Below, piece after piece: positions 6,073-11,769 of a stretch of DNA of 31,861 nucleotides. The notes beneath the pieces are model-generated. The model was not told where the DNA came from. It worked only from the letters and a program-made list of their open reading frames with translations, and searched no databases. This DNA is from Planctomycetia bacterium. GTDB lineage: Bacteria > Planctomycetota > Planctomycetia > Pirellulales > UBA1268. The translations under genes were made by a program, and so were the position numbers. The stretch is taken from positions 1 to 31,861 of the forward strand of contig RFUD01000001.1 in the NCBI GenBank assembly GCA_009923125.1, in the 5' to 3' direction. Every line of letters begins with the position of its first letter. Position 1 is the first letter of the stretch.

Positions 6073-6144
6073 TCCCCGATAGCTCAACGGTAGAGCGGCC
6101 GGCTGTTAACCGGTAGGTTGTAGGTTCGAATCCTACTCGGGGAG
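6073..6144 (+). tRNA. tRNA-Asn (GTT), CCA not encoded
   Basis: Acceptor stem TCCCCGA/TCGGGGA, D arm GCTC..GAGC, anticodon arm GCCGG-CTGTTAA-CCGGT (GTT at 6105-6107), T arm GTAGG-TTCGAAT-CCTAC. Confidence 0.97.
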
Positions 6145-6185
6145 CTTCCTTCGCAGGGTGCTGCACCGGCTCGCATGGAGCCGCA
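6131..6185 (+). repeat. att-like repeat copy 1 (tRNA 3' end plus downstream sequence)
   Basis: TCCTACTCGGGGAGCTTCCTTCGCAGGG... matches 7046-7100 at 50/55 nt. Confidence 0.9.
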
Positions 6186-6217
6186 CCGACTCAGTGCCCG
6201 TCTCGATGCTTCTCCAT

Positions 6218-6643
6218 TCAGGAGGCACCCTCGCGGCCCGAGTCGTGGTCCTCCATGAGCCACATTCCGGGCGTCATGATCGCGAGACCGTAGAACTGGG
6301 TTCCGAGAAGGCGGCCAAAATCGGCACGATCGAGGGTCAGCAGAACATCGGCCGTCGCCAGGGCACTGAACAGGATCGGCCGGTCCTTATTCACGGGAAA
6401 CACTGCCGGCCTGTCGATCGTCAACACATCGTCGACCAGATCGAGTCGAGATCTCAGCCGCAGCCACGCGACCGTGACCGGAGCGGTGAAGACCGCCAGA
6501 TTCCTGTTGACTTCGTCAACCGCGTACGGCGTCGTGATCAAACGCCAGTCCCGCATCGATGCCCGCTGAAAGAGCTCCCGGGAGGCCCCCTCCGCCGACG
6601 CTGCCGCAGCGATCAGCACGCTCGAGTCGAGAAACAGCCTCAC
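6218..6643 (-). CDS. PIN-domain (VapC-like) toxin
   Basis: 141 aa; N-terminal LFLDSSVL, plus conserved acidic residues in AVDEV, KDRPIL and LLTLDRADF. Confidence 0.85.
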   Translation of the reverse strand: MRLFLDSSVLIAAAASAEGASRELFQRASMRDWRLITTPYAVDEVNRNLAVFTAPVTVAWLRLRSRLDLVDDVLTIDRPAVFPVNKDRPILFSALATADVLLTLDRADFGRLLGTQFYGLAIMTPGMWLMEDHDSGREGAS

Positions 6644-6840
6644 GGCCGCGCTCGAAGCCGCCGCATGTCCGCCTCGTCTTCCGTGATCCAGCCGGCAATC
6701 TCATCGGGGGTGAACGTTCGCGGCTCGGGTAGCTGGGCGCCCTCGGCGCGGAGTCGCGACGCCAAAAAGAGCATCAGTTCTTGCTTCTCGGCAGGCGAGA
6801 GTCCCGCGGCGGCAGATTCGATCTCGGCAAGCGTGACCAT
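6640..6840 (-). CDS. Putative antitoxin upstream of the PIN gene
   Basis: 66 aa MVTLAEIESAAAGLSPAEKQELMLFLASRL..., typical of small addiction-module proteins; 4-nt overlap with the PIN start. Confidence 0.75.
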   Translation of the reverse strand: MVTLAEIESAAAGLSPAEKQELMLFLASRLRAEGAQLPEPRTFTPDEIAGWITEDEADMRRLRARP

Positions 6841-8731: not shown

Positions 8732-10114
8732 CTACTCGATCCGCTGGATATCAGAAAGCACCCACGAGCGGTCGAAGTAGGCCTGCGTCGGGCCGTAGAG
8801 GCGGAAGTAGCTGAACCAGCCTTTCCCAGCGAGCGTCTTGATCCAATTGCTCTCCGGCAGGCCGGCGGGGGGCGTGGGGCCGAACGTGATGTCCACGGAC
8901 CCATCGCCGTTCGTGACGATGGCGTCTCGCGACGACCGATCCGGCGACACGCCTGAGTTGACGAAACAGCGAGTCTCGTTGTCGTACACCGTGACGGACC
9001 AGAACTGTGCCACGGGCACGTCCTTCGGCACCGTGAGGCGATAGGTCCTGCCACCATCAAGCCAGCGGTCCTGGCTGTCCTTCGCGGCCTCGAGGTAGAC
9101 CTGCCCGACGCCGACGGCGCGGCCCATCATGCCCACGGAGACACCGACGGCCTCGTAGAACCAGCTCGTCCGCTCATCCAACTGCGTGTGGTGAGGGGCT
9201 TCCTGATTGGTCTCCTTGAGAAACAGCGAAAGCTCCCAGTTTCTGCCCGACCAGACTTTTGCGCCGTCGAACCGCTTGCGATAGGCGATGGCTCGGGCCA
9301 TCACCTCACCGGTCTGTGCGGCGTCGATGAGCAGTTGCCGCTGCCGGTCCGTCGGGCTGAACGGCCTGCCCTTTTCGATCCCCAGCGGCTGGAGCATGCC
9401 CATCATCATCCGGTCACGCTCGTGGACCGGTTCCTCCTGGATGATCCTCGCAAGGCCCTCCCAGTAGGCGAGGCCGCGCGGTTGTTCCCCGCTCCAGGGC
9501 CGCCCCGCCGGCGCGACGTGGCGGGTCGGGGCCGGGTTGTCGCGCTGGCTGTGGGGATAGATCTTCAATCCATCGATCAGCCGCTTGGCTTTCACCGGAT
9601 CGGGGTCGAGCACGCGGTGGGCCGACCAGACATTCACCGTGGGCGAACGGAAGACGTGATACCCGTCCGGTTTCATCTCCGAGGCATCGGGGCCGAGGAT
9701 CAGGTACCGGCCCCCCGCGCCCTTGTCGGGGCCGGTTTGGCCCGAATCGGTGATCGGCCGCTGCCAGAAATCCGTGAAGCCGCCTGCCGTGGGGCCGGCG
9801 GGAACCTCGAACACCAGCGGCCCGGTTTCCTTGAGGTTGGGAAACGCCATGATGTACGGCGTCGTGGCGTTGGCCGTGAGGAGGCCGAGCTTGTCCTGGA
9901 AGGTGAGGTAGTCGACGTAGTCGAGCTTGCCGGCGCCGAACCTCGTGAGATGCTCGCTCTGCCATTGCTGCATCGCCATCAGCGGCAGAGCCCAGAGGTA
10001 GGCCTGGCACGCCCGCTGGTAGTCGATGTCGTCGAAGATCTTCGCGACGGTGGCGTCGGTGGGGTAGCCGTTTTCCAGTTCGAGCGGGCCGAGCCGGGAT
10101 GCGATTCGTTTCAT
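8732..10114 (-). CDS. DUF1254/DUF1214 domain protein
   Basis: QRACQAYLWALP, LTANATTPY, WQRPITD.G.TGPDKGAGG.YL, PVAQFWSVTVYD, GWFSYFRLYGP. Start placed at ATG 10114. Confidence 0.88.
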   Translation of the reverse strand: MKRIASRLGPLELENGYPTDATVAKIFDDIDYQRACQAYLWALPLMAMQQWQSEHLTRFGAGKLDYVDYLTFQDKLGLLTANATTPYIMAFPNLKETGPLVFEVPAGPTAGGFTDFWQRPITDSGQTGPDKGAGGRYLILGPDASEMKPDGYHVFRSPTVNVWSAHRVLDPDPVKAKRLIDGLKIYPHSQRDNPAPTRHVAPAGRPWSGEQPRGLAYWEGLARIIQEEPVHERDRMMMGMLQPLGIEKGRPFSPTDRQRQLLIDAAQTGEVMARAIAYRKRFDGAKVWSGRNWELSLFLKETNQEAPHHTQLDERTSWFYEAVGVSVGMMGRAVGVGQVYLEAAKDSQDRWLDGGRTYRLTVPKDVPVAQFWSVTVYDNETRCFVNSGVSPDRSSRDAIVTNGDGSVDITFGPTPPAGLPESNWIKTLAGKGWFSYFRLYGPTQAYFDRSWVLSDIQRIE

Positions 10115-10116
10115 GG

Positions 10117-11649
10117 TCAGGGCACCTTCTCGATGTCGCCGGGCTTCCAACGCTTGTCGATGGCGGCGGCGGTCGGGCCGTAGAGCCTGAGGACGGCGAA
10201 GTATCCCCTGCCAGGCACCGTCGCGATCCAGTTGCCCTCCTTGCCCGCGGGTGCCGTCGGGGCGAAGTACAGGTCGGTGCTGCCGTCGGCGTTCTGAGAC
10301 GGCGTGTCACGAGAACCGAGCGATGGGAACGGCTGGCCATTGGCGAGTCCCGAACCGTTTTCTGCTTCGTAGAGCGTCACCGACCAGAAGTTGGCGGCCG
10401 GGATGTCGCGCGGCAGACCGAGGCGGTAACGGCTACCGCCCGACAGATTCGCACCGTGGCTGTCAACGAAGGTGATCATGTATTTGGCGCCCCGGCCGGG
10501 CGTCTGCGACAGCATGCCGGGGCTGACGGAGTAGTAGTTGGTGAAAAACCAGATCCGGGCGTCGAGGTCGAGATAGCCCCCGGCCACCCTCCGCCAGCCG
10601 AGGTCGAAAGGACCGGCGGGATTCTCCGGGGTCGCGTCGGCCATGGGGTTGATCCACCGGCGGTCGGGATAGATTCGCAGGGAACGACCGGCCACCTCTT
10701 CCTCGAAGCCGATGACGCGGCTCATCTTGAAGGCTGTCTTGGCGGCGTGATCGAGAATCGCCCGTGCCTTTGCATCGGGCGCGAAGGGTTGGCCCTTGGC
10801 GATGCCGATCGATGCCAACAGGCCGAGCGAATCGGGGTCGGCGAGGCTGGCGCCCTCGGTCTCCACCAGTTTCTTGAGTTCATCGAACGCCGACCCGTCG
10901 CTGATCGGCAGCATGTTGACCGGGACACCCGACGCATCGGGAAACCGCATCGGCCGGGCGGTTTCCTTGCCGTGGAGCGGATAAATCCTCGACTGTTCGA
11001 TGAGCGCGACGGCCGGCGTGAGATTGTTGGGGTCTTGGTAGAACGCCCGCAGGAAGACGAACACGTTGTTGGTGGGCGAACGGTACACGAAACATTGCTG
11101 TGGCACCGCTCCCTCGTAGCCGGGTGGCAGAAGCAGAAACGTTCCGCCCTTGCCGGCATCGGGCCCCGGCAGGCCGACATCCCCGAAGAACGTGCCGCCA
11201 TCGACGGGGATCGGCCGCTGCCAGGCATCGAGGAGAATGCCCTGCAAGTTGGGCGGAGCCTCGAACACGAGCGGGCCATCTTTTCCGAGATCGACGTAGC
11301 CCATGGCATAGATGACATCGGAGTTGGGGGTCGTCACCAGGGTCTTGGCGTCGAGACGCTTCTTCCAGACCGGCAGCACGTCGTAGCCGGCGCCGAAAAC
11401 CTTCTCCGAGCCAACCTTCATGCCGAGCGTATTGATCAGCGGCAAGGCCCAGAGGTAGGCCTGCGTCGCCCGCTGGAAGAGCATTTCGTCACGCAGCGTG
11501 CGGGCCGTCTCCGGCGTGGGCCTGTTTTCCGAGAACGGCAGGCCGCTCAACGCCTCGAAGCGGGCGAGTTCTCCGGAGCCCGCGACGCCATGCATGAGCA
11601 CGAGAGCGAGCGCCGCCGAGACGAGCCTCTGACCGCGTTTGTTTTTCAT
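10117..11649 (-). CDS. DUF1254/DUF1214 domain protein with signal peptide
   Basis: QRATQAYLWALP, TTPNSDVIY, WQRPI, PAANFWSVTLY, YFAVLRLYGP; N-terminus MKNKRGQRLVSAALALVL is signal-peptide-like. Confidence 0.88.
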   Translation of the reverse strand: MKNKRGQRLVSAALALVLMHGVAGSGELARFEALSGLPFSENRPTPETARTLRDEMLFQRATQAYLWALPLINTLGMKVGSEKVFGAGYDVLPVWKKRLDAKTLVTTPNSDVIYAMGYVDLGKDGPLVFEAPPNLQGILLDAWQRPIPVDGGTFFGDVGLPGPDAGKGGTFLLLPPGYEGAVPQQCFVYRSPTNNVFVFLRAFYQDPNNLTPAVALIEQSRIYPLHGKETARPMRFPDASGVPVNMLPISDGSAFDELKKLVETEGASLADPDSLGLLASIGIAKGQPFAPDAKARAILDHAAKTAFKMSRVIGFEEEVAGRSLRIYPDRRWINPMADATPENPAGPFDLGWRRVAGGYLDLDARIWFFTNYYSVSPGMLSQTPGRGAKYMITFVDSHGANLSGGSRYRLGLPRDIPAANFWSVTLYEAENGSGLANGQPFPSLGSRDTPSQNADGSTDLYFAPTAPAGKEGNWIATVPGRGYFAVLRLYGPTAAAIDKRWKPGDIEKVP

Positions 11650-11727
11650 CACTGCCTCCGAGGGTTCCTGAGGATAGCCCCGTCGATGACTTTTCTGCGA
11701 GCGTCGAGTTGACCCCGTCCCCTGTTC

Positions 11728-11769
11728 CTCGGGGAGTTTTCCTCGCAGCGGGCTGCAGCGGCGCGCATG
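11728..11769 (+). repeat. Degenerate att-like repeat copy 4
   Basis: CTCGGGGAGTTTTCCTCGCAGCGGGCTGCAGCGGCGCGCATG aligns ungapped to 6136-6177 at 35/42 nt. Confidence 0.7.

Follow-up and report, generated by a model that had tools for sequence, protein, structure and literature searches.

Cis-mobilizable elements (CIMEs) and their tandem accretion at the 3' ends of tRNA and protein-coding genes have been described in streptococci (Pavlovic, 2004; Bellanger, 2011; both as summarised in PMC5704250; PMC7563491). Classical CIMEs measure 1.2-13 kb and microCIMEs are devoid of genes (PMC7563491). Among the tandem islands at ssrA in Dehalococcoides, 15 lack an integration module and were proposed to be cis-mobilizable (PMC3146451), and the tycheposons of Prochlorococcus combine integrase and replication modules on 10-20 kb (10.1101/2020.12.28.424599). 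Beyond CIMEs, ssrA islands and tycheposons, our literature search on integron-like arrays of toxin-antitoxin (TA) genes at tRNA genes returned nothing specific. Here we describe an array of small cassettes without integrase genes behind the tRNA-Asn gene of a member of the Planctomycetia, located on a contig of 31,861 nucleotides (RFUD01000001.1 of assembly GCA_009923125.1) that was analysed at its full length and is hereafter called the window; it is the whole of one contig of a 688-contig, 83%-complete metagenome-assembled genome. We judge it probable that positions 6131 to about 13380 form a hot spot of a tyrosine integrase using the tRNA-Asn 3' end, and that its units are non-autonomous integrative cassettes lacking an integrase. 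The cassettes are best described as CIME-like, non-autonomous members of a family of tRNA-targeting islands, each combining one attachment (att) site with one addiction module. Cis-mobilizable elements and tandem accretion are as such already known; distinctive here are the dominance of a class of about 0.9 kb with TA genes only, the complete and strongly conserved att sites, the family-wide spread at two or more tRNA targets and the clear sharing between species.

The array is defined by repeats of the tRNA 3' end. The 17-mer TCCTACTCGGGGAGCTT, hereafter the core, occurs exactly at 6131, 7046 and 7840, always on the plus strand, with core-to-core intervals of 915 and 794 bp (cassettes 1 and 2). 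By chance 0.09 matches with up to three mismatches were expected, and none of 100 shuffles contained three copies. The second copy is identical to the first in 50 of 55 positions, 28 nt of them uninterrupted. A search of the genome assembly for further core copies found none beyond these three on the window's contig, and only the one at 6131 sits within a tRNA gene (tRNA-Asn, 6073-6145), whose 3' end serves as attB for the array. The fourth copy, at 11723-11777, is decayed (69% identity over 55 nt) and weakly significant against a profile of 41 att sites (E 0.0014); at the equivalent place the relative G014 has an intact core before an Asp-protease homologue. The preliminary description of this locus had reported such directly oriented repeats, with one two-gene module in each of the first two intervals, and both observations held: three exact cores and the decayed copy were found, and Pfam placed PIN plus a small partner in cassette 1 and DUF4160 plus DUF2442 in cassette 2. 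The locus thus shows direct repeats of the tRNA 3' end bounding the inserts and an intact tRNA gene, as is typical of tDNA islands, but no integrase gene in the island, where such islands usually have one next to the tRNA. Because the first conserved downstream DNA lies at about 13384, the variable region spans at least 7.2 kb; compared with G006, G002 and G014, conservation begins there and resumes at about 15785 after a patatin gene.

The junctions are not artefacts of one assembly. An independent contig (6117-7434) spans that at core 2 with 0 differences, and contigs 7724-9825, 7532-9128 and 7132-7896 (runs X2, X5 and X10) span that at core 3. In Logan contigs from other metagenome runs, cores 2 and 3 were recovered with 0-1 differences, and the 5600-8600 stretch was present in at least 12 freshwater, lake and drinking-water runs from at least seven studies.

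An alignment of 25 cassettes revealed that their ends share a layout of about 100 nt, the arm, directly before the next core. It comprises a pair of CTGCG-like repeats, a pair of hexamers, a GAAAAC box near position -20 and a degenerate copy of the tRNA variable loop and T-arm. The hexamers read TGCGTC, TGAGTC, TACGTC or TACGCC and the two copies co-vary; in all of the cassettes with an exact pair (18 of 24) they stand at exactly -70/-58, a spacing of 12 nt, which generalises to the relatives the heptamer pair noted earlier in this arm. The layout is independent of gene orientation. Within its own genome a profile search found the arm only at 6946-7061 (E 6.9e-22) and 7740-7855 (E 1.3e-14), and cassettes 1 and 2 are enclosed by intact cores and arms, in line with their earlier description as discrete units bounded by att sites. 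Behind the core, left ends fall into a few recurring types with short hairpins. The 28 cores outside tRNA genes had a mean of 0.4 mismatches in 16 nt and the arm a mean column identity of 68%; near-invariant cores next to a looser arm point to constraint or recent recombination. RNAalifold detected neither conserved secondary structure nor covariation in the 25 right ends. An attC-like conserved fold was accordingly rejected, and because no such fold was found the stretch looks like a protein-binding arm. Its core repeats the end of the tRNA and its arm-type direct repeats keep fixed distances, which gives the locus the anatomy of a lambda-type site-specific system. The 'CTA' copies were considered as the flank of an ancestral empty site and dismissed, since this D-type flank also lies behind arm-preceded internal cores in G074 and G082; seen in the single-copy genomes G006 and G023 too, it is one more left-end type and no proof of an empty site.

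At least 10 genomes of the same genus, together with genomes of other genera, carry two to five cores per contig in direct orientation and 0.8-5 kb apart. When a sequence model of arm plus core (R1) was searched in 61 genomes of the family, an arm match was obtained in 36 genomes and in 12 of 12 genera, and in 24 genomes the arm ran through the Asn core. The 21 arrays retrieved yielded 39 measurable core-to-core units; Asn arrays span up to about 23 kb (G071:C6) and contain up to five or six units. Sizes of 779-1180 bp accounted for 22 of the 39 units, the others measuring 1.5-10.5 kb. The small units carry almost solely type II TA pairs: MNT/HEPN, PIN with Phd/DUF2281, HicA/HicB, Gp49 (HigB-like) with a helix-turn-helix (HTH) protein, and DUF4160/DUF2442. 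Assignment to type II is predicted from two-gene operons of overlapping or abutting small genes and from known toxin families (PIN, HEPN/MNT, HicA/HicB, Gp49 HigB-like/HTH); DUF4160/DUF2442 was assumed to be a TA-like pair. The label 'TA/defence array' given in the preliminary description does not extend to the larger units, whose cargo includes a leucine-rich repeat protein, a ferredoxin-domain protein, DJ-1/TPR, DUF1559, a beta-helix protein, an AraC regulator, two-component systems and DUF1254/DUF1214. Comparison of the arrays confirmed that cassette number, order and content vary among related genomes. Gene orientation varies as well: in the window every gene between 6218 and 15801 lies on the minus strand and points back to the tRNA, as had been stated, but this is no rule, as the Phd-PIN cassette is reversed and points away from it.

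Apart from the Asn arrays, the same arm is joined to a second core, TCCTGTCCCCGCCAC, in Met-core arrays of G082, G066 and G011. These arrays, with up to four copies, were located in L055 (G082:C255) at 5384-10965, in L057 (G011:C301) at 5204-6374 and in L058/L059 (G066:C6). A TCCTGTCCCCGCCAC core lies 1 kb behind the tRNA-Met gene in G011, and in G066 one copy is followed by the C-terminal remnant of an integrase. On G031:C140 (locus L044), from a genome of a different family, a gene for an IS110-family transposase (DEDD_Tnp_IS110 plus Transposase_20) at 8789-9847 is about 1 kb away from a 3' fragment of tRNA-Asn outside any detectable tRNA, with the core at oriented position 7247.

Cassettes have moved between genomes with boundaries exactly at the core. 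The Phd-PIN cassette at position 1 in G004 and position 3 in G002 is 99.0% identical over 730 bp, compared with 87% in the groEL region and 74% in the STAS region of the same two genomes, and a cassette of G024, from another genus, matches it at 93.7%; each time the identity sets in at the core. G007 (position 1) and G011 (position 2) share the MNT-HEPN cassette with a core-to-core identity of 91%, against 81-82% in their flanks. Relative to G011, in which the tRNA is followed by the HigB/HTH and MNT-HEPN cassettes, the genome studied here shows two additional cassettes, both without an integrase, towards the tRNA. These two were found together in a wastewater metagenome (run X15), where one contig matches 6130-7857 with 36 differences (97.9%) and nothing else of 4800-14200 was matched, flank depth (4800-6055 and 7940-14200) being about zero at 90% likeness or above. 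Because the same cassettes occur in other species, they probably move by an integrase borrowed from a related element. In run X5 one contig skips from 7071 to 8732 and another runs from 7674 back to 6132; these joints may be cassette-order variants or circles.

No integrase gene lies in the Asn arrays examined, as the preliminary description had noted for this one. PF00589 had no match on the window's contig or on the array contigs in 20 genomes, the Asn-array loci gave no tblastn match at E<0.01 with five integrases of the family described below, and none of the 39 units contained a remnant. A candidate source was identified in G071, where a tRNA-Val gene is followed by a 446-amino-acid tyrosine integrase reading towards the tRNA, cargo, an arm and a copy of the tRNA-Val end. 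The arm of this element has TGCGCCG at -70/-58, the same pair geometry as in the cassettes, so that the att flank type matches an identifiable integrase family, and the same repeats are present on the integrase side too. Homologues of this integrase, often fragments, were found in 77 of 151 genomes of the family, and 51 of 58 fetched loci had a tRNA gene alongside (Arg, Glu, Val, Met, Asn, Lys, Pro, Ser, Leu or Phe). A search for a tyrosine recombinase targeting tRNA-Asn had been proposed earlier as a check: four loci have a member of the family at tRNA-Asn (G024:C32, G154:C102, G131:C20 and G074:C114), and no intact member was found in the genome studied here. Arm repeats also adjoin the integrase of G024, where an E-type left end, three TGCGGCG repeats and then the integrase gene come after the tRNA-Asn core. 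Both G024 and G074 combine the integrase at tRNA-Asn with an array on another contig. At the tRNA-Asn locus of G154:C102 (L135), an open reading frame (ORF) of 149 amino acids at 6808-7257 with a weak, sub-cut-off HTH_17 match overlaps the start of the integrase; its product is a candidate excisionase-like directionality factor.

Traces of recombinases were seen elsewhere in the genome of the window. On contig C569, a 64-residue C-terminal integrase remnant (4023-4252) abuts tRNA-Glu(CTC) and is 41% identical to the tRNA-Glu integrase of G012; it is a decayed island of the same integrase family. Contig C120, on which no tRNA was found, has two adjacent PF00589 matches in different frames at 278-768, a frameshifted tyrosine recombinase of an unrelated family. 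Every genome has two Xer-like genes, and those of G013 are its only recombinases. XerC/XerD was considered as the recombinase and judged unlikely, as the arm geometry fits the lambda-type integrase family instead; no dif-like sequence was noticed at the site by eye, no dif search having been made.

The distal part of the array bears marks of erosion. By blastn, 7839-8121 corresponds to L047 6954-7236, the left part of the first cassette of G011 (84%), and 8120-8722 matches the second cassette of G011 in its right part (77%). A stretch of 818 bp including a core was thus deleted. The 7840-8722 unit is therefore a deletion fusion of two cassettes, and the 165-amino-acid ORF at 7873-8370, in which Pfam found HEPN in the N-terminal half and a weak HTH_37 in the C-terminal half, is a chimera produced by that deletion; an MNT fragment lies at 8390-8632. 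The unit had previously been taken for a decayed MNT-HEPN/XRE module. Its decay and its MNT, HEPN and HTH domains were borne out, but these belong to a HigB/HTH cassette and an MNT-HEPN cassette joined by deletion. A similar fusion was found in G002. The att site before the DUF1254 genes, present with intact arm and core in G012 and G002:C32, is gone here. TCCTGGACTCGGGGCCTA at about 8717-8736 was examined as a decayed core and rejected: its second half, CCTACTCGATCC, forms the 3' terminus of the DUF1254 gene and is also found 90 nt past the true core in G012, and the claim is for this reason limited to loss of an att site at this place. Coordinates of all features are given in Table 1.

Table 1. 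Features of the tRNA-Asn array and its surroundings in the window
Feature	Position	Strand	Basis and remarks
tRNA-Asn (GTT)	6073-6145	+	ARAGORN; sole tRNA in the window; intact
Core copy 1	6131-6147	+	Last T-loop base, 3' half of T-stem, acceptor 3' strand, discriminator and 2 further nt
Cassette 1 left end, A-type	6148-6217	+	TTCYTCGCAGGG followed by a short hairpin; shared with many unrelated cassettes of relatives
PIN-domain toxin gene, 141 aa	6218-6643	-	PIN_3, E 4e-5, under the curated cut-off
Small partner ORF, putative antitoxin	6640-6927	-	Likely start 6843 (67 aa); 4-nt overlap with the PIN start
Cassette 1 right-end arm (P-arm-like)	6946-7045	+	CTGCG-type repeat pair, TGCGTC at -70/-58, GAAAAC box at -20, degenerate tRNA-like stretch
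Core copy 2	7046-7062	+	Exact TCCTACTCGGGGAGCTT match
DUF2442 gene, 88 aa	7173-7439	-	Pfam, E 6e-14
DUF4160 gene, 89 aa	7387-7656	-	Pfam, E 5e-17; overlaps the DUF2442 gene by 53 nt
Cassette 2 right-end arm	7740-7839	+	TACGCC at -70 and -58, AAAAC at -20
Core copy 3	7840-7856	+	Exact TCCTACTCGGGGAGCTT match
HigB(Gp49)/HTH-antitoxin cassette, left part	7857-8120	-	84% identical to first cassette of G011
MNT-HEPN cassette, right part, MNT gene broken	8120-8722	-	blastn to cassettes of G011 and G007
Two paralogous DUF1254/DUF1214 genes, larger variable unit	8732-11652	-	Pfam
Decayed att copy	11723-11777	+	Core with 3 mismatches and A-type left end; no arm upstream
Aspartyl-protease-domain gene, variable unit	11825-13255	-	Pfam; by synteny, absent there in G002 and G006
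Conserved anchor closing the variable region	13384-13530		blastn; first downstream stretch common to G006, G023, G002 and G014

Homologues of the PIN toxin of cassette 1, with 70-85% amino-acid identity, are present in cassettes of four relatives; Pfam assigned its partner ORF (6640-6843/6927) to no confident family. The DUF1254/DUF1214 unit is 86.9% identical to that in G002:C32, and the second paralogue has, judged by reading the sequence, a signal-peptide-like N-terminus. A contig of run X2 (depth 28) joins 9052 to 11224 such that one hybrid gene replaces the two paralogues, and the copy number of this pair therefore varies in nature. The patatin-like phospholipase gene (13546-15801) is missing at the equivalent place in G006 and G014 and represents another variable unit. 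The genome yielded 27 DUF1559 matches, compared with none in 14 control genomes, in agreement with its earlier assignment to the planctomycetes.

We propose that a unit would consist of an attP-like site (the arm of about 100 nt, the 16-17-nt core and, opposite the arm, a short hairpin) together with a small cargo that is usually a single TA operon. A tRNA-linked integrase of the family, provided by an autonomous element in the same cell or by the vehicle of transfer, would recombine the tRNA end with one circular cassette or with several in tandem; the tRNA would be restored, a core copy would stay at the far side, and repeated integration would stack units. With its TA cargo, a tiny unit would plausibly be costly to lose and may be of use in defence as well, which would let it persist. 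Later deletions fuse neighbours, as at about 8120, and distal att sites decay, as at 11723 and before 8732. Sequence comparison leads us to infer that the cassettes already lacked an integrase when they moved, whether in trans or linked in tandem to an autonomous element; which integrase helped and what carried them from cell to cell are likewise inferred.

Several observations weigh against this interpretation. Arm-type repeats occur on one arm only of the small cassettes and on both arms of integrase-bearing elements, and the small cassettes may thus be poor substrates on their own. The DUF4160/DUF2442 cargo has differing left-end types across genomes, which is unlike the prediction of strict core-only exchange. 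An increase of core decay with array position was considered and rejected (Spearman -0.02 among detectable sites only, hence biased), leaving no age gradient of att decay along the arrays. The window's own 83%-complete genome contains no intact integrase of the family, and the assembled contigs contained no excision circle or empty site of this strain. Finally, E-type units without integrase (for example, G082:C107) share about 200 nt of integrase-side arm with the Asn element of G024, which fits an origin by deletion.

The last point leads to the alternative that the array consists of eroded islands, each unit having arrived with its own integrase and been left as an immobile scar by independent deletions. 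This is the textbook origin of CIMEs (PMC5704250; PMC7563491), and it accords with the deletions across att sites in the window and in G002, with the fragments of integrase that are common beside tRNA-Met, tRNA-Arg and tRNA-Glu in the family, and with the part of the integrase-side arm that E-type units retain. It does not readily explain why none of the 39 Asn-array units holds an integrase remnant, why 22 of them fall within 0.78-1.18 kb with intact two-gene operons, why cores outside any tRNA are almost invariant, or why cassettes at differing array positions are 91-99% identical next to flanks of 74-87% with homology stopping at the cores. We consider erosion on its own unlikely, but to describe the units as minimal cassettes 'rather than' eroded islands, as was done at first, is too strong given the 818-bp fusion deletion and the E-type arms. 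Erroneous assembly or chance repeats, which a fragmented metagenome-assembled genome and the frequent breaks of relatives' contigs at these repeats might suggest, can practically be dismissed in view of the chance expectation, the independent contigs across cores 2 and 3 and the recurrence of the same architecture in dozens of genomes.

An integron-like platform, in which a resident integrase beside tRNA-Asn captures attP-bearing minicircles to the benefit of the host, would be in keeping with the unit size and TA content of the arrays and with G154 and G131, in which tRNA-Asn has an integrase as its neighbour and stretches of 9 and 17 kb, respectively, yielded no distal att. It appears improbable to us, as most array genomes, including this one and G013, have no integrase at the tRNA, the integrases are scattered over many tRNA genes and often fragmentary, as expected of mobile islands, and no promoter or expression logic tied to array position has been shown. 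'Integron-like' stands as an analogy only, as the arrays showed no fixed integrase platform. Going beyond non-autonomous cassettes at an integrase hot spot, which we favour, we put forward tentatively that the units of about 0.9 kb could be an evolved class of minimal non-autonomous integrative elements (attP plus addiction module) that parasitise tRNA-targeting integrases and build integron-like arrays, a counterpart, among tyrosine-integrase islands, of miniature inverted-repeat transposable elements. Overall, the initial observation was confirmed and its interpretation is partly supported.

Several features of the array are those of CIMEs: the units are flanked by att sites, contain no integrase and, in cassettes 1 and 2, only TA-type genes by Pfam; they stack in tandem at a target gene of tyrosine integrases and outnumber autonomous elements, and composite (tandem) transfer is plausible, as the 6130-7857 block in run X15 suggests. 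Unlike CIMEs, most units here are of about 0.9 kb with a single TA operon, the host belongs to a freshwater planctomycete-like lineage with arrays of up to five or six units and about 23 kb, and no conjugative partner is in sight, although conjugation genes were not searched for. By definition, CIMEs are decayed integrative and conjugative or integrative and mobilizable elements; in the small cassettes here tblastn found no integrase remnants, and some larger E-type units of relatives retain part of an integrase-side arm. The ssrA islands of Dehalococcoides likewise occur in tandem between direct repeats of a t(m)RNA 3' end, with a short conserved motif upstream of each repeat, but their recombinase module is of the serine type and their rdhA cargo is large, whereas here a tyrosine integrase, arm-type repeats and far smaller units are found. 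Tycheposons also use several tRNA targets, successive integrations pushing older elements inward and leaving partial tRNAs and remnants scattered; unlike them, the present units have neither integrase nor replication module.

Integron cassettes and the pdif modules of Acinetobacter plasmids are promoter-poor units of about 1 kb that have their own site, no recombinase and often TA genes; attC sites act as folded single strands, and pdif modules use XerC/XerD sites in alternating orientation. The array resembles both in these traits and in its row of units, probably shuffled by a recombinase encoded elsewhere. Its site, in contrast to attC, is a tRNA-derived core with lambda-like arm repeats and no conserved fold, and, unlike in integrons, no recombinase lies beside the array, which is preceded by feoB, groEL/groES, a STAS gene and a gene for an anti-sigma-type ATPase. 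Pseudo-SCC (staphylococcal cassette chromosome) elements at rlmH (orfX) in staphylococci are recombinase-less, att-bounded tandem cassettes that can be excised by Ccr in trans; they differ in depending on serine recombinases (Ccr), in having a protein-gene target and in being much larger.

The spread of TA pairs is usually explained by hitch-hiking on plasmids, phages and large islands. At this locus, individual TA pairs appear to be transferred on tiny site-specific cassettes of their own, an idea that is testable at the bench because the att architecture is recognisable and a candidate helper integrase family is identifiable. Its single core, 100-nt arm, many natural variants and range of target tRNAs make the array a compact natural system that could show how arm-type sites and core switching set the specificity of integrases. 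To our knowledge, mobile elements of Planctomycetota are little described, and the locus provides an example of a gene-capture hot spot in these bacteria.

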